The translations under genes and the position numbers were made by a program. Of a DNA stretch of 64,000 nucleotides, positions 2,803 to 51,202 are shown in pieces. The DNA comes from a virus. Lineage: Duplodnaviria; Caudoviricetes. How positions within the stretch are numbered: the stretch's first letter is position 1; each line of letters begins with the position of its first letter. Where the stretch lies: positions 167,715-231,714 of IMG/VR virus record IMGVR_UViG_3300009031_000368; one strand, written 5' to 3'. The notes under the pieces are model-generated. The model ran no database searches, was not told where the DNA came from, and saw only the letters and a list, made by a program, of their open reading frames with translations.

Positions 2803-3024
2803 TTACTCGTAGAAATATCGCCAGTATCCATTGCATTTCCAGTGAATTGCCATATCGGGATGTTCCGTCAATGACGTTGTATACAACCTGAAATTCTCGA
2901 TATTACAGCCTTCAAGCTGTGCCTTATTCCGAAAGGCGTTTTCGGCAAACACAGCGTTTTCTGCTTCAATATAGAGAACAGCAAGAAGACCCATGAAGGA
3001 ACCAGTCACGATAAAGCGCGTCAT
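2803..3024 (-). CDS. small membrane-anchored/secreted protein
   Basis: N-terminal hydrophobic segment; directly downstream of promoter 3072-3100. Confidence 0.6.
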   Translation of the reverse strand: MTRFIVTGSFMGLLAVLYIEAENAVFAENAFRNKAQLEGCNIENFRLYTTSLTEHPDMAIHWKCNGYWRYFYE

Positions 3025-3071
3025 AGCCGTTCCATTCGTTCATCAACGGTTTCAAATCATCAACTAAGGAC

Positions 3072-3100
3072 AATATACGACACGACGGCACAGAAGTCAA
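3072..3100 (-). promoter_or_regulatory. sigma70-type promoter
   Basis: TTGACT-17 nt-TATATT. Confidence 0.8.
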
Positions 3101-3109
3101 GAGGAATTT

Positions 3110-3436
3110 TCAATTATTTTGCAACAAGGGTTGTAGCGCTTCGATCCACTCGCTGCAATCGGTCCCCATTCGTAAAGTCACATCAACGTACTGACTATTC
3201 TCAAATGATGCCGTATAGAGAATCAGCTTTTTGTCCGGGTATTCGGTACGGATTGTTCTGATGTAATCGCCAGGCTCTCCAAATGTCGCCCCGACACCGT
3301 TCCAGTCGCAAATCACGATATCGTAATCTTCTACGTCTCCAACATGTATATCATAACTGACGTCTACCAGATAACCCCGCAATCCCAACAATTCAGCAAG
3401 CGGGAATCCGTTGTCGTTGATGGCAAGGATCTTCAT
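3110..3436 (-). CDS. stand-alone atypical response-regulator receiver domain
   Basis: MKILAIND...YDIVICDW...KLILYTA pattern; GGAG RBS; conserved Lys (KP) missing. Confidence 0.65.
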   Translation of the reverse strand: MKILAINDNGFPLAELLGLRGYLVDVSYDIHVGDVEDYDIVICDWNGVGATFGEPGDYIRTIRTEYPDKKLILYTASFENSQYVDVTLRMGTDCSEWIEALQPLLQNN

Positions 3437-3465
3437 CGTTGGCTCCAAGTTCAAAGTACGAAGAC

Positions 3466-3494
3466 ATAATGACATGACTACGGGGAATTGTCAA
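3466..3494 (-). promoter_or_regulatory. sigma70-type promoter
   Basis: TTGACA-17 nt-CATTAT. Confidence 0.7.
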
Positions 3495-3506
3495 GCAGAA
3501 TTTATA

Positions 3507-3818
3507 TCAGGCCAGCACAATGGTTTGTGATACCGTGAACATCGATTCGACACGTTCGCGGAGCATCTTAACAAGATGCGTTCGTGAGTCTTTTGTCAGT
3601 TTAGCTTGAAAATTAGCAAGGTGCTCTTCCGCCTTATCGGCGTAAAGTTTAGCGGCATAAAGCGGGAAATCAGAACTCCCATCGCTCAACAGTACCAGCT
3701 GAAAAGTAGCGTCCCTGCTAATGGTGAATGTGGCCGGTACGCCTTCAAATCCGACGATGAAACGTTCACCATCGCCCATAACACTGATCCGTATATCTGA
3801 TTCATTGATATGTTTCAT
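3507..3818 (-). CDS. hypothetical protein
   Basis: ORF with GGA RBS; overlaps the upstream stop. Confidence 0.65.
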   Translation of the reverse strand: MKHINESDIRISVMGDGERFIVGFEGVPATFTISRDATFQLVLLSDGSSDFPLYAAKLYADKAEEHLANFQAKLTKDSRTHLVKMLRERVESMFTVSQTIVLA

Positions 3819-4093
3819 GTTTCCTTCCTGTTGTGTTCACAAATCGGACAATCTGTCTTATCAACTTGCTGAAATACTACATCTGTTTCTTCGACGTCTG
3901 GAATAAATTCCGTGCATCCGATCGGTTCAAGGTTTAATGATGGTGCAAGTATGATATGATGCTTTTGCCATGGCACAAACATTGGAACATCGATGCCCGA
4001 TACCTGGTAGTATGTTGTACCGTTGTCGCTAACGTTCATGACTTGATTGATAATGAGATCTCCAACAACCGTTCGATAATTTATAGCATACAT
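3815..4093 (-). CDS. hypothetical protein
   Basis: ORF; C-terminal CxxC. Confidence 0.6.
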   Translation of the reverse strand: MYAINYRTVVGDLIINQVMNVSDNGTTYYQVSGIDVPMFVPWQKHHIILAPSLNLEPIGCTEFIPDVEETDVVFQQVDKTDCPICEHNRKET

Positions 4094-4117
4094 GGTATTA
4101 CTTCCTACATAGGTCGT

Positions 4118-4345
4118 TCATTCCGTGAAACAATCCACCAGCCAATCGAATACATCGGCAACATCTGTACTTTTTACATCTACACTCACATTCCAATCGG
4201 TTCCGACTGTGAAATATCGATGACAATGATACTGTCCAGCAAACCCAGATAGCACCACCAATACTTCCGATTCATCACGCTGGAAATACCTGATTATCGT
4301 TAATCCATTTTCCCATACGTGGCGTAGCCGTTCAAGCGTATCCAT
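4118..4345 (-). CDS. hypothetical protein
   Basis: ORF in gene string. Confidence 0.6.
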   Translation of the reverse strand: MDTLERLRHVWENGLTIIRYFQRDESEVLVVLSGFAGQYHCHRYFTVGTDWNVSVDVKSTDVADVFDWLVDCFTE

Positions 4346-4347
4346 TC

Positions 4348-4959
4348 TTACTCCACCACAACGATATCTACGTCACAGATACCGATTTCTAGCCTGTTGT
4401 AGACGATGTTCCCAGAATTTCGGACAAGCTTGTCCCCATCCTGAAATGCATGACTGTATGGCATTGGGGTCCATGTCGTCCATTCCAGCCAGCTCTTTTC
4501 GCTTGATGTATACGTTACGCCATCAATAACGACTTGCTTTGGCTCTTTATCTTGAACTCTGTATCGCCAGTCGTATTCCCATACCACCACGAGTCCAAGC
4601 TTATCGGTATCGATTCCGCTTTCATGTAGAGCTAGCATCGAACTATGAACAATACGTTCCCTGACTGAAGCCTTAACGACCTTATAGGTGAGGCGGTTTG
4701 GCCTATACTCAATTTCCACACAATCCTTATTAAGCGAACCGACAATGGCTGTCTTTAAACGTTCGATCTCCCGCAAAATGCTATCAGCGAAGCATTCCAT
4801 TACACGTTCGGCATTGTGGGTAAACACACCGGCCATGTCTGATACTAAACGCTCCGGATCCACGTAATGGTATGATGTCCGGATCTTTCGCCATTCGTCA
4901 CACAATGCGTCCAATCTAGAGATGTCGGAATCGAAACAGTTTACTTTGAAATAAATCAT
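4348..4959 (-). CDS. hypothetical protein
   Basis: 203-aa ORF, tightly packed. Confidence 0.7.
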   Translation of the reverse strand: MIYFKVNCFDSDISRLDALCDEWRKIRTSYHYVDPERLVSDMAGVFTHNAERVMECFADSILREIERLKTAIVGSLNKDCVEIEYRPNRLTYKVVKASVRERIVHSSMLALHESGIDTDKLGLVVVWEYDWRYRVQDKEPKQVVIDGVTYTSSEKSWLEWTTWTPMPYSHAFQDGDKLVRNSGNIVYNRLEIGICDVDIVVVE

Positions 4960-4994
4960 ACATTGCCCTTACGCTATCAACTGCTTCAACGTTG

Positions 4995-5816
4995 TTAATC
5001 GATGTGTGCGACAGCGACATTTAAATCATGATCAGCATCTTTGTCGCAAGAATCTAAATACTCACAAATCGAATACAGCATGGTTCTGCGCAATTGATTG
5101 CACGCCTGGTTGTCGCAAACAAAGTAATCCTCACAGTATGTATCTTCACAGTCACCGCGCGACACATACATGAACGCGGCACGGCCATCATACCAGAACG
5201 AATCGATGGTAACGAAACTGTTGTCACAGTCCAAAACGTGTTGATGTCGGCGAACCTCACAACCTCGTACTACAATTTCAGAATATCGGTCACCGTTAAG
5301 ACCATCCACCAAATAATCTAGATGACGCCAAACCTCATCACATTCAATCACGGTGTATGGGAAGTTTAGCGCGTCAGCGACCGTAGGTCGATACAATGCC
5401 TTTATACGAACAATTTCGCTTTGCTCTAATGCTACAAATTTAGAATCTTGCTCGAGCCAGTCGATCCAATCTCCAACGTCGCTGGACTGTATCAGCTCTT
5501 CCCTTGTGTCGAGAGGCTTCCAGTGCTCCAGCACTTCAATTAAATCTTCATCCGTAGCCAAACAGTTTGTAACTCTATCGCCAGAACCTGTCACGTCTTC
5601 AGGAAATTTCATGCATTCGGCCCATTCCCCATCACCGGCATGGAATGTGCCATCACCGTTACTTACAGCGACTTCCCTGAACCATCGTGGTTCTCCGTTA
5701 AGCAGCTTCCCGGTGAAGAACCGAAGGATGGTTTCGTTTCGGATCCTTCTCATATAAAGCTTACCTGTAACGATGTTTTCCATGATGGTCTCACTTCGCG
5801 GTTGAATCGGCAACAA
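4995..5816 (-). CDS. hypothetical protein
   Basis: 273-aa acidic ORF; start probably MENIVTG. Confidence 0.7.
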   Translation of the reverse strand: MLPIQPRSETIMENIVTGKLYMRRIRNETILRFFTGKLLNGEPRWFREVAVSNGDGTFHAGDGEWAECMKFPEDVTGSGDRVTNCLATDEDLIEVLEHWKPLDTREELIQSSDVGDWIDWLEQDSKFVALEQSEIVRIKALYRPTVADALNFPYTVIECDEVWRHLDYLVDGLNGDRYSEIVVRGCEVRRHQHVLDCDNSFVTIDSFWYDGRAAFMYVSRGDCEDTYCEDYFVCDNQACNQLRRTMLYSICEYLDSCDKDADHDLNVAVAHID

Positions 5817-6108
5817 TCTTCCATGTCGTTCCGTATATCACAGCATGATCGATATGTCGGGAACTTTTGTGCTCAGCAACAATCATCGCTTCCAGGATAC
5901 GGATCGCACGACGGACAGCCTTCCTCGCATTCCTGGACGTTCTGTAACAACAGGTATTGATTGCAGCTAAACGAAACAATCCGTTGATAACGGCATATTC
6001 AATAGTTGTTGTCCCGCCAGACAGATAAAACGTAGCTGTTTCAACGCTGAACGTTTTGTGACGTTTGGTTATTTTCCGAGAAACTGATTCTGGCATATAT
6101 TGCTCCAA
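5791..6108 (-). CDS. hypothetical protein
   Basis: First ORF after promoter 6127-6155. Confidence 0.6.
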   Translation of the reverse strand: MEQYMPESVSRKITKRHKTFSVETATFYLSGGTTTIEYAVINGLFRLAAINTCCYRTSRNARKAVRRAIRILEAMIVAEHKSSRHIDHAVIYGTTWKIVADSTAK

Positions 6109-6126
6109 CGTTTAGTCATCGGTGGC

Positions 6127-6155
6127 AATATAGCATAACGGGCGGATTTTGTCAA
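6127..6155 (-). promoter_or_regulatory. sigma70-type promoter
   Basis: TTGACA-17 nt-TATATT with extended -10 TG. Confidence 0.85.
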
Positions 6156-6279
6156 GCAGTATTTTTGATTTTGCACTCGTCTGGCGTGTTATCGACGATT
6201 GTTTTGCGAACGTCGGTAGATTTTCGCAATCGTTTCATCGTCAACCGGTACTGTTATTTTGGCTAGGATTAACCGATAA

Positions 6280-6735
6280 TTATCGCCTGGTATTTTTATG
6301 TCTGAAGTATTTTACAATGTATTCATCTCCGACAGTAATTTTCATTACAGCAGATGAAGTTAGATTTACTTTTAAAGATGGTTCCTGTTGTTCTCTGCCA
6401 AGCATCCTCAATGTCATATTCCAAACACTTTCGCATGCTGGCTGTAGGTTCCTTGGCAGAACGCTAAGATTTTTCACAACAGCTTCTACATTGCTGGTAG
6501 AAAAAACAATGTCGGATGATTCAATGTGGGTAGGAGATTCATTCACATGAATATATTCATTCCTTAAGTTATTCTGTATTGCTTCCTCAAAAAAATTCCT
6601 AGCATCTTCAAGTTCATCATTGTCATAGCCATATCCATCGGCCCAATCTTCATCACTAACCGTTTTCTCGATTAGCTGTCGCCGTCTAGATATCAACTTA
6701 CTGTTTTCTAATTGTTTTGTTCTGTATTGCCTCAT
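6280..6735 (-). CDS. hypothetical protein (possible frameshifted C-terminus to 6189)
   Basis: GAGG RBS; an alternative frame continues for 34 codons past an A5 run. Confidence 0.65.
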   Translation of the reverse strand: MRQYRTKQLENSKLISRRRQLIEKTVSDEDWADGYGYDNDELEDARNFFEEAIQNNLRNEYIHVNESPTHIESSDIVFSTSNVEAVVKNLSVLPRNLQPACESVWNMTLRMLGREQQEPSLKVNLTSSAVMKITVGDEYIVKYFRHKNTRR

Positions 6736-6748
6736 CTTTTTACCTCAT

Positions 6749-8689
6749 TTACCGGATCGGGCAACTTCCGCCCGCACATTCTTCAGTTTCAATCCATCCT
6801 TCTGTTGTCAATGGATGATTATAGTTAATTGCTCGATTCATGTCAACGAACGTATGTTCATCGATTGATTCATATGGTGGTTGCTGATATCCGTGGTCGC
6901 TTGGCAGGCAACTGGTAGACTTGAGCAATGGCACATACCGGCGCAGACAGTCGGCCAGTTCATCGATGTTGTTTTTATCAAACGTAATGGTTTGACTTAC
7001 CGCATTATCTGCCCAACTGGTTTGAACAGCTAGTTGGCGTGCGAACTGGTTTTCGACAGAATCATTCTTAACCGTGACTCGTGCAACCGATTGCATGGGG
7101 AAACTGAATACTAGCGTGTGGCCAGTTTTATCATACACACATGGCTCATATGTTAATCCGGCTTCCTTAAATGCACCAACCATTGGATCATTGTCGGCCA
7201 ACCTGACGCGACGAATGTAATACCGGTCGAATGCCGCATGGTTGCCAGGCGACGACCCGCAAAGCAAACTTATGGTGCCACTTGGCTTCACCGTAGTCTT
7301 TGTAATCGGCCGGTTAACACCAAGCTCATCGGCATAATGGTCTGCGCAATCAATTACATGATCTCGCCATGACACTAGCTGTTCGTTCGTCCAGCTAAAA
7401 TCACACAACCCACCAAGAGCAACGCCAATCCTCATATTCTGTTTACCGACCAAATCTGAAACAGGATCTATTAATGCCGGCAACCGCTGACGCATCGCAT
7501 ACCTGGTAGCAAGTGTCAGTCGCCGTGTGGCCGATATGGCGCCAACCCTAAGTGCTTGAAAAACCTCAGCTAAATTGCACGCCTCGCCATCCCATAGCGA
7601 TTGTTCGCCGCACGGATTAAATCCCGTTGCGAATGGATCAGTCTTCCATACATTGACCATGTTTACGATACCAGGTTCTCCAAACAGTGCCATATCGTTT
7701 GCAACACTATACCAATCAAATGATTGAATCTGTTCTTCACTTGTAAACATTAAGCTGTTATTGGATGTATGTCTGTGAGATAATACTTTTGCCAGGTCTT
7801 TTTTTGCATTTCTAAAGTCCATATCGTACGGATGCCCCAATATCAGCAAAGAACTCCTGCGCACGTTACCTGATTTGATACAGAAACCAATGTGGTTCGT
7901 GATATCCAGGCACTCAACAGAATTAAGTTTTCTGCCATGCGCACCATCCACAATCTGCCAAATCTCCATCAACATTCTAACAAGTGGTCCCGGGCCGCAT
8001 GCCACGCCTCCAAACGTTTTAATGACAGACCCGCGTTTGCGAATTCTACTGACATCGATCTCAATATGTTCACGTCGATATGCAGCATGCAATACCATTT
8101 GCAATGCTTCCACCCATCCTTCACGAGAGTCCGGCACGATGAATCTATGCTTTTGCATATACCCAATAGACTTGCGCTCCTTTTCAATCTCATAAACTGT
8201 ATCTATGACTTCTTTATAGTCTGCATGTCTCTCATCACATACGATATCAAGAAATGCAAACGGCTTATCACGTTTGCTGGAGACTACAGGCATTGTGTCA
8301 ATCTTCGCAAGACTAACTCCAACACCACCGCCGAGCATCAGTCTATCTGCAACCCAGCACCAATCATCAGGCTTAGAAATTTGTATATTCCAGCAGTTGA
8401 ACGCCGCATCCGGAACCATTCCCTTAACGCCTCCTGTCCATAATCCACGACCCGGTGGTAATGCCTGCATGGTCCAAAAACAGTCAAACAGTTGTTTGGC
8501 TTCATCGATGGTGCAACGTGGATCTAGATTACAGTTTCCTTCAACCACTCGCCTGATGGTATCGGTCCATGTTTCTCCATCACGACAATATTTGGTCAAA
8601 TATGTGGCGCGGGCCAACAGGTTCGGAAAGCAATCTCCTTTAATGTAGTATGGTGCAAGGAAGTCATAATCTAGTTCGATTCTCTTCAT
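6749..8689 (-). CDS. nrdJ: class II (adenosylcobalamin-dependent) ribonucleotide reductase, monomeric RTPR type
   Basis: PPGRGLW, AFNC, GFNPCGEQ finger loop, TTVKPSGT, C-terminal EECAGGSCPIR. Confidence 0.95.
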   Translation of the reverse strand: MKRIELDYDFLAPYYIKGDCFPNLLARATYLTKYCRDGETWTDTIRRVVEGNCNLDPRCTIDEAKQLFDCFWTMQALPPGRGLWTGGVKGMVPDAAFNCWNIQISKPDDWCWVADRLMLGGGVGVSLAKIDTMPVVSSKRDKPFAFLDIVCDERHADYKEVIDTVYEIEKERKSIGYMQKHRFIVPDSREGWVEALQMVLHAAYRREHIEIDVSRIRKRGSVIKTFGGVACGPGPLVRMLMEIWQIVDGAHGRKLNSVECLDITNHIGFCIKSGNVRRSSLLILGHPYDMDFRNAKKDLAKVLSHRHTSNNSLMFTSEEQIQSFDWYSVANDMALFGEPGIVNMVNVWKTDPFATGFNPCGEQSLWDGEACNLAEVFQALRVGAISATRRLTLATRYAMRQRLPALIDPVSDLVGKQNMRIGVALGGLCDFSWTNEQLVSWRDHVIDCADHYADELGVNRPITKTTVKPSGTISLLCGSSPGNHAAFDRYYIRRVRLADNDPMVGAFKEAGLTYEPCVYDKTGHTLVFSFPMQSVARVTVKNDSVENQFARQLAVQTSWADNAVSQTITFDKNNIDELADCLRRYVPLLKSTSCLPSDHGYQQPPYESIDEHTFVDMNRAINYNHPLTTEGWIETEECAGGSCPIR

Positions 8690-45143: not shown

Positions 45144-46244
45144 CTAAAGGCTGGCGAGAAAACCGGACACCCGATCCGCAATCGCTGTATTGCCCCACCG
45201 GCCATGTTCCTGCCTGACTGCAAGTTCATACCTGCTGTTACAACTACATGTTACATATGGGATATCTGAAACATCGCGGCTATATAGGTATCGCTCAATG
45301 TTGGCGATTCTAACATCCCGACACGTCATGCAACTAATTGCGCATTCCGAGTCTGGATTGATTGATGGTTTCAATTCAGACGTATTGACCATAACTTCCA
45401 GACCATATCGGTGCGTGATGCGGAGAATCTCTTCAACCGTTTGAATCCACGCAACACCATATAGCCCCATTCTGTGAAGTACCGCGCAAGTCGTATTGGG
45501 AGCAACACGATTCGGACATAGGGTGATATACGTTACGCCTAGACGCTTCAGGTACTCAACCGAGTCTTCAACGTCATCGATAGTTTCTGACTCCGTCACA
45601 AATGGCGGTTTAATCATCAAAAACGCAAGCGGGATATAGTTGTGCTCAAGCAATATTTTTGTCGTCGATTCAAAAGCATGTTTGGTACATGTGGTATTGA
45701 TGGCAATGTTTCTAATGTCATCATTGGCCGATTGAAAACCCATAAACACGCCAAGCCGGACATCGCCGAGGATGCCCTTTACATGGTCAAGCTTTTCAGC
45801 AGTCACATATTGAGGGAGTGACTCAACTACAGCGTAGTTGGCACCAAGCTGTCGGATCCGCTTGAACATATGATCGCGTGCTTCTGGTGAAGTTTCCGCA
45901 TCATTAAAAAAGTTACCATTACAAAATAGCGTAACCATGTCGTAACTGTTTACATCACCGATAAAAGATGATTCAAACTGATTGATGAGATTATCGGTTT
46001 CAATGCCTGGTAGTGCTTCATTTGGGAATGGACACATGGTACACGTTTTTACACGGCATCCACTTGTCAACAGCACGATACGTTTCCTGGTTACCCGTTG
46101 TCCTTCAAATAGGATTGAATCTGACTTATGATGTTGAGGAAGATCCTTCGATACATTGACATCAACGGTAGATGTTCTAAGAGAACGGGTAAATCGTGTA
46201 AGTTCAGATCGAAGGTCCGACATAACTTCATCTCCATCATGCAA
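45144..46244 (-). CDS. RaSEA-like (TIGR01210/archaeosine-lyase family) radical SAM protein
   Basis: LTSGCRVKTCTMC, GNFFND, VVESLPQYV, GFQSANDDIR..IN, FLMIKPPFVTE.E.IDD, C-terminal CxxC...CxC. Confidence 0.8.
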   Translation of the reverse strand: MHDGDEVMSDLRSELTRFTRSLRTSTVDVNVSKDLPQHHKSDSILFEGQRVTRKRIVLLTSGCRVKTCTMCPFPNEALPGIETDNLINQFESSFIGDVNSYDMVTLFCNGNFFNDAETSPEARDHMFKRIRQLGANYAVVESLPQYVTAEKLDHVKGILGDVRLGVFMGFQSANDDIRNIAINTTCTKHAFESTTKILLEHNYIPLAFLMIKPPFVTESETIDDVEDSVEYLKRLGVTYITLCPNRVAPNTTCAVLHRMGLYGVAWIQTVEEILRITHRYGLEVMVNTSELKPSINPDSECAISCMTCRDVRIANIERYLYSRDVSDIPYVTCSCNSRYELAVRQEHGRWGNTAIADRVSGFLASL

Positions 46245-47211
46245 TCAATTGCAGGTTTATTCCTTCCCAACCGCCCGGAACAGTACGCTCCATGATATCA
46301 AAATGAACAGCTGGACTGCCGACACGGTACTTGTGGGCATTCCGCTTATGAATCTTTTCAATGGCTGCAAAATGCGTTCTCAATTCACTTAAAGCATCCG
46401 CACAAAGATAGCATCCGATAAATATCCGTTCAACCTTTGAAGTCATCACCAGTTGATACAATTCAAGATGTTCATACGTTGAGCCGAACATCTGTTCATC
46501 TGTCTGTCCATCCCATACATCACCGGCCGGAACGGCCTGAATGATGGAATCCGGAACGTGGAGATACTTGGCAACTTCGTATACTTCACTTTTATGAATG
46601 TCACTAATCGGTTGAATATCAACCATTGCATCGGATGCCTTACCGAAGAAACCAATATAGGCGCCTTCAGATCGATTTGTGGTCCCGACAACTACCGCGC
46701 AATTATTGCCATTATCTTGAAGCAGTGCGGCAATGTAGTACAGGGCTGGCGTTCTAATAATTGAGCTGATTTGGCCATATGCCCATGCATTCCTGTTTAC
46801 ATGAGAATCTGTACTACCGTGCTCAACCATCGTTGCAATACTATTCAGTCCATGAGACAGGTCTGCCGACCATGGTTTGATGACATCACCATAGATGACG
46901 TTCATCCGATAGATTGCTTCCCCCCCACGTTCCGAAGCAACAGTCTGATTCGATGTGCCGATCCCACTAACCGGCAACCTGGCAGCAACAATCCTTTTAA
47001 TCGGACTACCCGGCTGCTGGCTGGCATGGCCTAGCAGGCCAAGTACAACCGCGCTATCGACTCCACCACTAATGCCAACAACGCAACTGTCGATCCCGCA
47101 TTCAGTGAAGTACTTGTTGATGGCTTTACACTTTTTGTTGACATAAGTGTCAACATCGAATGCGCGCTTGGCTCTGGCTGATTCAAGTAATTTCATTAGT
47201 TGTGGATGCAT
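46237..47211 (-). CDS. nadE: NH3-dependent NAD+ synthetase
   Basis: VVGISGGVDSAVV (PP-loop), GTTNRSE..IGFFGK..D, PISDIHKSEVY, GQTDE; no glutaminase domain. Confidence 0.9.
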   Translation of the reverse strand: MHPQLMKLLESARAKRAFDVDTYVNKKCKAINKYFTECGIDSCVVGISGGVDSAVVLGLLGHASQQPGSPIKRIVAARLPVSGIGTSNQTVASERGGEAIYRMNVIYGDVIKPWSADLSHGLNSIATMVEHGSTDSHVNRNAWAYGQISSIIRTPALYYIAALLQDNGNNCAVVVGTTNRSEGAYIGFFGKASDAMVDIQPISDIHKSEVYEVAKYLHVPDSIIQAVPAGDVWDGQTDEQMFGSTYEHLELYQLVMTSKVERIFIGCYLCADALSELRTHFAAIEKIHKRNAHKYRVGSPAVHFDIMERTVPGGWEGINLQLIA

Positions 47212-48344: not shown

Positions 48345-49379
48345 TCAGAAAATCTGGCTAAATACCGGGTAAAGCGCGTCATTGGCAGAACTATCCACCG
48401 GCACCGACCAGAATCCATCATGACTGCCAGGGATAATGGTACAACCGTGCTGCCGGCCATCGGCATTGTAACACCGGCCGCGATTACCGGTCAAGTATCC
48501 GTACAGCCTGGCATTGTCATCGGTCAACACATACTGGTCGGCCGAGAATCCGACATGCACGTAATTGATATTCTTGAAAGCGCCACGAGGCACGATAGGT
48601 CGCTTCATGTCGGCATCCAGCCCAAGCATATTGAATGCCGCCGTGCATGGCTCTCCGTTGTTCATATAACTGGCTTCATCGTCGGTCGGAACCGCTCCGT
48701 CATACAGCTCTCCCGTATTTCGATCCGTAAAGAATGCATCCGTCCAGTCGTCATTGGTCTGCATCTTGAAGTAACAGCCATTGGAATCAAGCTTCATGGC
48801 CGCCAGCAACGTCGCATAAATGTCTGGATTGGCCAATCCTCGCCAAAGCAGCCCATCAGGCAACGTAGATGCGAACAGCACAACATCGGTAACGCCGAGA
48901 TCATCGATCGACGAATCCTGAGCGATAAGATCGGCCTGAAGGCTCTGGATCGTGATACCGCCGAGGCTATGGCCGATAAGTGCGACTTCGTGCCCGTCGT
49001 AAGTGGCTTGCAACACACTGTCAAGCGCATCAACGTAATTGTCCAGGCTTGTTTCGCCGTAGATGCCCGGATACTCGGAAGTGCCATGCGCGGGGAGATC
49101 CACCACGTATACGCGATTTACGTCAAAGCTATCTGTCAAATACTCAGAAAGGGGAACCGAGACATCGCCGTCATGTGCCATCCCATGAACGATGACGACA
49201 TTCTTCCCATCAGGATCGTAGCCGTTTAAATACCGCACCGTTACTTCGGTGCCGTGAGTCACTCCGGCCTGAATCATCGGAACGGTCAACTGACCATCCA
49301 GCTCAATCTGAGGATTTGCAAAAGCCGTGTCAGACATAAGAAGTCCGGCCGCCATCATCAAGGAAGCATGCTTAATCAT
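48345..49379 (-). CDS. secreted alpha/beta-hydrolase (esterase/lipase)
   Basis: Signal peptide ending AFA; VIVHGMA, VVDLPAHG, IGHSLGG (GxSxG), SADQ, GSHDG. Confidence 0.88.
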   Translation of the reverse strand: MIKHASLMMAAGLLMSDTAFANPQIELDGQLTVPMIQAGVTHGTEVTVRYLNGYDPDGKNVVIVHGMAHDGDVSVPLSEYLTDSFDVNRVYVVDLPAHGTSEYPGIYGETSLDNYVDALDSVLQATYDGHEVALIGHSLGGITIQSLQADLIAQDSSIDDLGVTDVVLFASTLPDGLLWRGLANPDIYATLLAAMKLDSNGCYFKMQTNDDWTDAFFTDRNTGELYDGAVPTDDEASYMNNGEPCTAAFNMLGLDADMKRPIVPRGAFKNINYVHVGFSADQYVLTDDNARLYGYLTGNRGRCYNADGRQHGCTIIPGSHDGFWSVPVDSSANDALYPVFSQIF

Positions 49380-50014: not shown

Positions 50015-50592
50015 AGCGGTTCTACCTTTGTCGTTTTACCAACCGTATACACGATTTTCTGCCCAACGGCAGGAACGAAGTCGAAGATATCACGATTTAT
50101 GTAAATGTTATACGATTCATCGTTAAATGTTACATCCATGTAAACCTTAATGGGTCCAATATGCGTGATGATGGCATCATAGTGTATATTGATGGGACAC
50201 ATAACGTTTCGGCCCAAGCTGATATGAAAGTCAGAACGTGGTTTATCGGATAACCCATAATGTTGCCTGATTTCAGTAAGTGCCTTACAGACGACCGATA
50301 ACCACCATGTTTTGCCATCAGTCATCACGTTACTGCTATATTGAAAATAAAACTTAAGTCCGTCATGACCGTACCAGTCTTCAACGTTACGGTTCGGCTT
50401 TTCACTCTTTATGATGGAAATGTGAGAACCAAACGCGGGACGTTCAAGCATTACTCCGCGCTTACGTAGGAATGACCGGTACAGATCAACGATGCCTTCA
50501 CTACACTTCAACGACATCCGCCAATCTGTAATTGACTGTTTACCACTAAGTGTTGGCGGATCCGTTACAATGTAACCATAACTGTCAAGCAT
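50011..50592 (-). CDS. 2H phosphoesterase family protein
   Basis: Two HxS motifs, PAFGSHISII and SDFHISLG. Confidence 0.75.
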   Translation of the reverse strand: MLDSYGYIVTDPPTLSGKQSITDWRMSLKCSEGIVDLYRSFLRKRGVMLERPAFGSHISIIKSEKPNRNVEDWYGHDGLKFYFQYSSNVMTDGKTWWLSVVCKALTEIRQHYGLSDKPRSDFHISLGRNVMCPINIHYDAIITHIGPIKVYMDVTFNDESYNIYINRDIFDFVPAVGQKIVYTVGKTTKVEPL

Positions 50593-51202
50593 TGGTAATT
50601 ATCCTAAACGTTGACTTCAATCCATTATAGATAGGCTGGAATTCTGCCTTGTAGATTTCCCAACCAGTATCCGCTGGATGCCGACTAATTGATTGCCAGT
50701 AATGTTGCACGGAATCAAAATCAATCGTGCCAACCATTGCCAGTTGGATGCCAAAATCTATGATGCGCAGACTATGGAACAGGCTCTTTCTTGCCGTATG
50801 TGGCGCATAATCGGCCGGAACCGTTAGCTTCTTTTTGGCTTTAACGAAACTGTTGGATGCCTTAGCCGAAAATGATTCTCTCAGCATCCGCGTATCTGGC
50901 TCGAAATCGAATATAATAGTTTGTTTAAGCACATGACGGTATGGTAACATCACACATTCGACAGCCGTTACATCATGGCAAAACAATGCACGTTTAAAGT
51001 CCGTTTCGCCGTAAACGGTTACATCAATCATTGGCGCTTGAAGTTGAACGTATTGATATTCGTCTGACGCCACTACAATGTAATCGGTATCTGACTGTTC
51101 TGATGCTGTTCCATAAACCGTTGACCCATACCGGTATACGTTATGGATAACAGTTATGCCGTTAGAGGCAAGAAGCAACATGAGTTGTTCTAATTCATTC
51201 AT
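50585..51202 (-). CDS. pol-beta superfamily nucleotidyltransferase
   Basis: YRYGSTVYGTASEQSDTDYIVV (GS...DxD); helical C-terminus KSLFHSLRI. Confidence 0.85.
   Translation of the reverse strand: MNELEQLMLLLASNGITVIHNVYRYGSTVYGTASEQSDTDYIVVASDEYQYVQLQAPMIDVTVYGETDFKRALFCHDVTAVECVMLPYRHVLKQTIIFDFEPDTRMLRESFSAKASNSFVKAKKKLTVPADYAPHTARKSLFHSLRIIDFGIQLAMVGTIDFDSVQHYWQSISRHPADTGWEIYKAEFQPIYNGLKSTFRIITNA

Follow-up and report, generated by a model that had tools for sequence, protein, structure and literature searches.

A RaSEA-related radical SAM enzyme in a phage NAD module, a candidate oxygen-independent counterpart of a 2-oxoglutarate oxygenase

Two relatives of the enzyme described here have been characterized. 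RaSEA, working in complex with ArcS, cleaves the lysine moiety (a C-N bond) of preQ0-Lys, the lysine having been attached by ArcS (PMC11298593), and queuine lyase (QueL) converts queuine to preQ1 (PMC7694415). Both, then, act as radical C-N lyases, and their reaction leaves a base with a freed nitrogen function. Three phage pathways of NAD supply have also been described, namely NARP1 (Adps and Namat), NARP2 (Nampt and Nmnat) and NARP3 (PnuC and a NadR-like kinase/adenylyltransferase). We have analyzed a RaSEA-like radical S-adenosylmethionine (SAM) gene of a jumbo phage, located in a window of 64,000 nucleotides that comprises bases 167715-231714 of the 231,714-base IMG/VR virus record IMGVR_UViG_3300009031_000368 (CheckV completeness, 76%). 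The gene is the second of four closely packed, co-directional genes on the minus strand (window 47211-43017). It follows a gene for the NAD synthetase NadE and is followed by a gene for a 161-aa protein (P0003) and by a gene that fuses a nicotinamide/nicotinate mononucleotide (NMN/NaMN) adenylyltransferase to a phosphoribosyltransferase (NMNAT-PRT). As judged from sequence comparison, the best explanation of the gene is that it encodes a predicted active radical SAM enzyme of the RaSEA/queuine-lyase lineage that was recruited into an NAD module.

By textbook accounts, NadE and either ammonia or glutamine suffice for the last step of NAD synthesis. The pairing of NadE with a C-H-activating enzyme, together with the exchange of that enzyme between a radical SAM and an oxygenase form, would imply an unrecognized step that makes or alters this universal cofactor, and the service of a RaSEA-family enzyme in an undescribed version of the last NAD synthesis steps appears to be the best explanation. 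The literature on NARP1, NARP2 and NARP3, including a November 2026 review, mentioned no NadE, radical SAM or oxygenase component, and a literature search joining radical SAM, NadE, NMNAT and phage returned nothing relevant. The module formed by NadE, a C-H-activating enzyme and NMNAT-PRT is undescribed, and we found no paper on it.

Radical SAM and 2-oxoglutarate oxygenase genes beside NadE

We have surveyed the ±8 kb flanks of homologues of the radical SAM gene, drawing the DNA from genome, metagenome and viral collections, clustering the open reading frames (ORFs) and running Pfam solely on recurrent neighbors. The radical SAM gene had NadE and NMNAT-PRT genes at a distance of less than 8 kb in ~23 distinct loci and in several gene orders. 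The loci originated from Curtiss-, Collier- and Shapirobacteria, Peribacteria, Microgenomates, two Pseudomonadales metagenome-assembled genomes, many metagenome contigs and a viral contig. The module is rare, being present in <1% of the sampled Candidate Phyla Radiation (CPR) genomes (2/301, both already known), and 300 further genomes of the phylum yielded no additional one. Three of the five module-bearing CPR genomes were without a match to NadA, NadC or NAPRTase. In two of these three (G003 and G005) the module NadE was the sole NadE match, and the other (G001) added one weak partial PP-loop match.

The NMNAT-PRT fusion was also found in 16 other viral records, many of them from phages of 390-480 kb. 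Twelve of the 16 carried a NadE of the same type and 13 a 2-oxoglutarate (2OG)-Fe(II) oxygenase, with the radical SAM gene being present in a single one and in none of the nine complete viral genomes with NMNAT-PRT. Among the viral records with this NadE, 11/12 carried the oxygenase instead of the radical SAM gene. With the 258-aa oxygenase of L163 as query, we searched a total of 22 records in full. The oxygenase was detected in 13 of the 15 viral records without the radical SAM gene (8/9 of the complete ones) and in none of the seven radical-SAM-bearing genomes, i.e., this phage, the viral L002 record and the five CPR genomes. When both NadE and the oxygenase were present, the oxygenase gene lay less than 1 kb downstream of NadE and on the same strand in 9/11 records, which is the slot held by the radical SAM gene in the phage studied here. 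The gene order of the sister phages is NadE, oxygenase, a small ORF and NMNAT-PRT, and that of the window is NadE, radical SAM, P0003 and NMNAT-PRT.

In a NadE tree, the genes with and without a radical SAM neighbor were interleaved, with at least three switches, and the NadE of this phage fell in a clade in which 7/9 lacked a radical SAM gene. The window is a jumbo-phage case, in which the swap is seen directly among related phage NadE genes. In a metagenomic locus (L094), the NadE is 597 aa long and its C-terminal half is a 2OG-Fe(II) oxygenase domain. Homologues of this domain occur in the viral loci L163, L164, L166, L170 and L175-L177, and Pfam confirmed the assignment in 6/6 of those scanned.

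Because NadE, radical SAM and NMNAT-PRT genes recur in ~23 loci, and because a 2OG oxygenase takes the same place elsewhere, the data supported a functional tie between the radical SAM enzyme and its neighbor NadE. A preliminary description of the window had proposed such a tie for a repurposed enzyme, and that proposal gained from both observations. Moreover, since the slot beside NadE holds a radical SAM enzyme in some genomes and a 2OG-Fe(II) oxygenase in others, the former would carry out the same step as the latter, without the need for oxygen. When a radical SAM enzyme and an iron oxygenase that depends on oxygen replace each other, this usually marks a single C-H-abstracting step carried out with or without oxygen, and HemF/HemN is an example of such aerobic/anaerobic enzyme pairs. 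The present case resembles HemF/HemN in that an oxygenase and a radical SAM enzyme would serve one pathway step; we draw this as an analogy and claim no homology.

We had also considered the radical SAM gene as a dispensable accessory, given its absence from 15/16 viral NMNAT-PRT records and the interleaved NadE tree. This idea was dropped once the oxygenase was found in its place.

Start, fold and family of the radical SAM protein

The Cx4Cx2C cluster motif and the segments VVESLPQYV, GFQSANDDIR and LMIKPPFVTE, which the preliminary description had pointed out, were all present in the translation of the ORF at 45144-46244 (minus strand). This mechanical ORF (P0001, 366 aa) opens at TTG 46244, a reading that made the gene overlap NadE by 8 nt. 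The sequence shows the NadE stop TGA at 46239-46237, a GGAG ribosome-binding site just 3' of it at 46232..46235 (minus strand) and an ATG at 46223-46221. Since homologues begin at residue 8 and the GGAG lies 8 nt upstream, the true start is most likely ATG 46223 (residue M8). The gene would therefore extend over 45144..46223 (minus strand, 359 aa) and begin 13 nt past the NadE stop, so that the proposed overlap would disappear. The public gene call (P0005, window 45144-46034, 297 aa) starts at M70, within Cx4Cx2C, and is too short, as it leaves out the conserved N-terminal helix and, of the cluster cysteines, the first two.

The cluster motif reads C63-x4-C68-x2-C71, with all three cysteines invariant and accompanied by an invariant Met. 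The three segments are at residues 138-146, 169-178 and 209-218, respectively, and a C-terminal CxxC...CxC site is conserved (C305/C308/C333/C335). An AlphaFold2 (AF2) model (26 homologues) had a predicted local distance difference test score (pLDDT) of 94.6. Foldseek returned 118 PDB matches at E<=0.001, and all ~50 among the matches listed were radical SAM enzymes. Pfam gave nothing significant on the protein, PF04055 being below threshold. The cluster motif, taken together with the partial TIM-barrel fold of the predicted model, confirmed the membership of the radical SAM superfamily.

The protein matched the NCBIfam RaSEA model TIGR01210 over its full length (residues 55-348 vs profile positions 17-308 of 313; E 4.7e-49), at a score of 167.3 bits that stays under the curated cut-off of 212.15. 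Hence, of the earlier assignment to a RaSEA/TIGR01210-like enzyme the family part stood, the profile match not being to an unrelated radical SAM family, and RaSEA proper did not. Identity was 32-54% to bacterial and metagenomic homologues vs 23-29% to archaeal RaSEA. In a tree of 131 sequences, the 42 archaeal RaSEA formed a clade behind a branch of 1.58 substitutions/site with an approximate likelihood-ratio test (aLRT) support of 100, and the phage protein was placed outside it, among bacterial and phage sequences. Common to all clades are the cluster cysteines and the invariant Met, E141, G169, KPPF and the C-terminal CxxC...CxC. Five archaeal residues, R143, E145, E171, N243 and N246 (phage numbering; conserved in 76-100% of the 42 sequences), are switched in the bacterial and phage clades to L, Q, Q, C and R, respectively. 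These five residues may line the substrate pocket.

The preliminary description had reported no TGT/DpdA or Que genes in the window, and we could extend this to the whole 231.7-kb record (76% complete), in which PF01702 (TGT/DpdA), PF06508 (QueC) and PF01242 (QueD/PTPS) had no match at E<=1. No ordinary deazaguanine pathway was thus found by this full-record search, and a link to the modified nucleoside dG+ in DNA was not supported. The sub-cut-off score, the separate clade, the switched residues and the lack of an ArcS or TGT partner together led us to regard the phage enzyme as a RaSEA-family radical SAM protein that is not RaSEA proper and is predicted not to be an archaeosine enzyme.

The phage enzyme is like RaSEA in its full-length homology, including Cx4CxMC, E141, G169, KPPF and the C-terminal four-Cys site, and also in having as its neighbor an enzyme by which a nucleotide acquires a nitrogen function. 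It differs in its partners, which are NadE and NMNAT-PRT, with no ArcS, TGT or preQ0 pathway. The family profile reached one PDB sequence only, that of the queuine lyase 6p78 (E 1.1e-6), which was also the best Foldseek match (E 6.2e-8; template modeling score 0.66 on target; root-mean-square deviation 3.3 over 204 columns). The likeness to QueL would lie in a radical C-N cleavage that yields a nitrogen-bearing base. The identity is 17% over ~200 residues, and QueL, at 230 residues, has neither the N-terminal helix nor the C-terminal Cys domain of the phage enzyme; the queuosine context is also absent here, with no TGT match in the phage record. A role in the NAD module would give the bacterial/phage branch of the RaSEA family its first function. 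A literature search found no mention of TIGR01210.

Candidate reactions in NAD synthesis

The first module gene (P0002; window 46237..47211, minus strand) encodes a 324-aa NadE that was identified by Pfam (NAD_synthase, 106 bits), by TIGR00552 nadE (109.6 bits vs a cut-off of 63.65) and by its best PDB relatives, which are NH3-dependent NAD synthetases. Its motifs SGGVDS, GTTN..E and K.SD are intact. The glutaminase domain is absent, so that the protein is an NH3-type NadE and not the amidotransferase as which it had been described. The last gene (P0004; 43017..44600, minus strand; 527 aa) encodes the NMNAT-PRT fusion, which was assigned from profiles and an AF2 model (pLDDT 88). Residues ~49-264 correspond to a eukaryote-type NMN/NaMN adenylyltransferase, with matches to CTP_transf_like and TIGR00482, a profile E-value of 2.9e-30 vs the eukaryote-type NMNAT 9rpk and a VIA-align Z of 21.4 to the NMNAT 9iw1 for residues 49-262. 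This domain is nearer to eukaryote-type NMNAT (Z 21) and NadD (Z 15-17) than to NadR (Z 10). Residues ~265-420, with a helical tail, have a predicted type I phosphoribosyltransferase (PRT) fold that is closest to orotate phosphoribosyltransferase (OPRT; Z 6-7), and carry the invariant phosphoribosyl pyrophosphate-type acidic motif DDD..TG.T.

The module resembles the Preiss-Handler route (PncB, NadD and NadE) in having an adenylyltransferase and an NH3-type NadE, with a PRT step implied. It differs in that its PRT is an OPRT-like type I enzyme fused to a eukaryote-type NMNAT, not PncB, and in an extra radical SAM or 2OG oxygenase step that has no textbook counterpart. Like NARP1-3, it would supply NAD from genes of the phage itself, which is plausibly of use when a defence depletes NAD. 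The published pathways, in contrast, have no NadE, radical SAM enzyme or 2OG oxygenase, and NARP1 and NARP2 differ further in that the phage record had no match to the Nampt/Namat family (PF04095, NAPRTase fold). The module is a candidate fourth kind of phage NAD supply beside the three known pathways that counter NAD-depleting defence. In two viral loci (L002 and L124), a Nampt gene and a gene for a Nudix protein lie directly upstream, so that L002 has both beside the module.

The reading that we favor, to which we would give a probability of roughly 0.4, is a C-H-abstracting step that is independent of oxygen and coupled to NadE. Most likely it would consist in the removal of an amino-acid-derived N-substituent, by which the NAD amide would be left. 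The PRT and NMNAT domains would convert a pyridine carboxylate to NaMN and then to nicotinate adenine dinucleotide (NaAD). NadE would adenylate the carboxylate and then, in place of free ammonia, couple to it the amino group of an amino acid. Next, a hydrogen would be abstracted from the carbon adjoining that nitrogen, by the radical SAM enzyme or, where oxygen is available, by the oxygenase. The substituent would then be lost, in the form of an aldehyde or an oxo-acid, so that NAD is left with its primary amide. The phage would use the module to increase NAD, or to build it up again, in the course of infection.

This mechanism seemed the most economical because the radical SAM relatives are C-N lyases and 2OG oxygenases are classic oxidative N-dealkylases. 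The preliminary description had suggested that the radical SAM enzyme acts on an amino-acid adduct made by NadE, and the swap and the NadE::oxygenase fusion are consistent with such an adduct. A gene of the Asp/Glu-racemase family was present in four loci, which weakly fits an amino-acid co-substrate. Two systems offer parallels. The first is ArcS/RaSEA, with the shared logic of lysine as nitrogen donor for archaeosine. The second is peptidylglycine alpha-amidating monooxygenase, which amidates peptides from glycine-extended precursors; the likeness, again an analogy only, is a primary amide obtained by way of an oxidized carbon beside the nitrogen of an amino-acid adduct. A broader proposal, which we hold to be rather doubtful, is that of a third route to the NAD amide without free ammonia or glutamine, in which NadE would join an amino acid to NaAD or NaMN and the carbon skeleton would then be stripped by a radical SAM C-N lyase under anaerobic conditions or by a 2OG-Fe(II) oxygenase under aerobic ones, making the module a portable NAD factory of jumbo phages and ultra-small bacteria. 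If true, such a factory may in phages also defeat NAD-depleting immunity. All module parts are small soluble enzymes and thus directly testable in vitro.

Several points weigh against the N-substituent reading. The substrate and the adduct are at present predictions. The phage NadE passes the nadE model and has every canonical motif, hence ammonia may simply be its substrate, and its sequence had no feature shown to favor a bulky amine. The oxygenase is of a prolyl-hydroxylase/PhyH-like type, which does not by itself indicate N-dealkylation. L094 holds both alternatives, so that the radical SAM enzyme and the oxygenase may not be strictly equivalent. The relatives at L003, L004 and L103 (46-48% identity) had no NAD genes within 8 kb, L084 is also a homologue without NAD neighbors, and an actinobacterial RaSEA-like clade sits in heptose/glycosyltransferase clusters. 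Another group of relatives adjoins two GT2 transferases and a methyltransferase. The substrate of the family is therefore not always a pyridine nucleotide. Finally, the phage record is just 76% complete.

Among the alternatives, the one that survives best, although we think it improbable, is that the radical SAM enzyme or oxygenase oxidizes the pyridine or ribose part, either dehydrogenating or aromatizing a reduced or non-aromatic precursor that would pass through the PRT, NMNAT and NadE steps, or decorating NAD, e.g., as an analogue resistant to host NADases. Both enzyme classes desaturate and hydroxylate as readily as they dealkylate, and the PRT domain is OPRT-like and not a known nicotinate PRT. 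Such an oxidation would also be compatible with the three CPR genomes for which no known supply of the pyridine ring was found (no match to NadA, NadC or NAPRTase), and with a class-I-methyltransferase-like family without Pfam match (c9, 285-303 aa), whose gene immediately precedes that of the radical SAM enzyme in ten loci. On the other hand, RaSEA and queuine lyase, the closest characterized relatives, are C-N lyases and not dehydrogenases, and the adjacent or fused partner is NadE, which carries out the amide-forming step, rather than the PRT. We know of no NAD analogue of such a kind.

Less probable again would be a salvage function like that of queuine lyase, in which the enzyme would cut an external N-substituted pyridine compound, e.g., a nicotinate or nicotinamide that is N-alkylated or conjugated to an amino acid, and free the base for the PRT domain. 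The nearest solved relative does this for the queuosine pathway, the module looks like an add-on given its presence in so few of the sampled CPR genomes, and the radical SAM gene sometimes adjoins NMNAT-PRT rather than NadE. However, an oxygenase that adjoins NadE in 9/11 records and is fused to it in L094 is unexpected for an enzyme acting before the PRT, and the base available in an NADase-depleted host is plain nicotinamide.

That the NAD link is incidental, the radical SAM gene being a mobile passenger with an unrelated substrate, appears very improbable. The close homologues without NAD neighbors (L003, L004, L084 and L103) and the distant family members fused to many unrelated domains speak in its favor, but the association holds in ~23 loci of varied gene order across phyla and viruses, and the 2OG oxygenase has a complementary distribution. 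Some phages carry dG+ in DNA, and the full-length similarity to TIGR01210 recalls an archaeosine-type function, in which a lysine adduct of 7-cyano-7-deazaguanine would become a formamidine (G+ or dG+) in phage DNA or tRNA; we regard this as next to excluded by the sub-cut-off score, the fully supported 1.58 branch, the five switched positions, the lack of TGT/DpdA, QueC and QueD matches in a 76%-complete record whose only other radical SAM gene is NrdG-like, and conserved neighbors in the ±8 kb flanks that are NAD genes, with no Que/TGT among the neighbor families scanned.

Other genes of the module and relatives of its enzymes

The other radical SAM gene of the 231.7-kb record, the NrdG-like one, is located at window ~13 kb. 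The INPHARED phage collection had no match to the radical SAM protein (tblastn) nor to 5 kb of the DNA (megablast), and PADLOC assigned none of the four module proteins to a defence family. P0003 (44597..45082, minus strand; 161 aa), whose stop overlaps the start of the NMNAT-PRT gene, is a candidate module member. It had no Pfam or NCBIfam match, no homologue in the related loci and no fold lead in the ESM Atlas, and it matched phrog_7702, a family of unknown function (E 1.3e-8).

Some relatives of the module have further recurrent genes. L011 and L013 have, divergent to the radical SAM gene, a gene for an NrtR-type regulator (a Nudix domain and an NrtR winged helix). The methyltransferase-like c9 family (L005 7099-7971 and nine other loci), which precedes the radical SAM gene in CPR loci, has a Rossmann-like ILDLCPGxAPK ... 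NHIIDDL sequence and was placed near class I methyltransferases by the ESM Atlas; it is absent from this phage. A second family without Pfam match (k19, 200-226 aa), unrelated to P0003, is encoded beside NMNAT-PRT or less than 5 kb from it in seven viral or metagenomic loci (L002 7397-8005, L111 490-1110, L165, L167-L169 and L171). In L094, the radical SAM gene, NMNAT-PRT, the Asp/Glu-racemase-family gene and the NadE::oxygenase fusion all lie within 2832-8344.

The actinobacterial RaSEA-like clade (L015-L036, L041, L064 and L070; Nocardia, Streptomyces, Kitasatospora and relatives) has 32-39% identity to the phage protein. Its genes are often translationally coupled to a serine hydroxymethyltransferase-like pyridoxal phosphate enzyme, and the neighbors include GmhA-HldE-type ADP-heptose genes, a carbamoyltransferase, a GT9 heptosyltransferase and a GDSL/hexapeptide protein, an arrangement suggestive of an uncharacterized glycoconjugate or nucleoside cluster.

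No fusion with NadE was found among the best 150 representatives of the radical SAM family, in which the longer members carry methyltransferase, DDAH-like, TIR, GNAT or ABC domains. A metagenomic protein of 656 aa (P0162) is a fusion of a TIR domain, which matched Thoeris ThsB-like and PDC-S66 defence models, with a distant RaSEA-like radical SAM domain (residues 367-623; E 4.7e-25 vs the phage protein). This protein is another tie of the radical SAM family to NAD-consuming enzymes.

Two further genes lie upstream of NadE on the same strand. A 344-aa alpha/beta hydrolase (window 48345-49379, minus strand), 1.1 kb upstream, has no counterpart in the related loci. A 205-aa pol-beta-type nucleotidyltransferase (50585-51202, minus strand) lies ~3.4 kb upstream, in a string of methyltransferase, nucleotidyltransferase and 2H-phosphoesterase genes. 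Homologues of this nucleotidyltransferase (35-37% identity) are encoded less than 2 kb from NMNAT-PRT in the viral loci L172, L173 and L177, which suggests that the string is linked to the NAD module.

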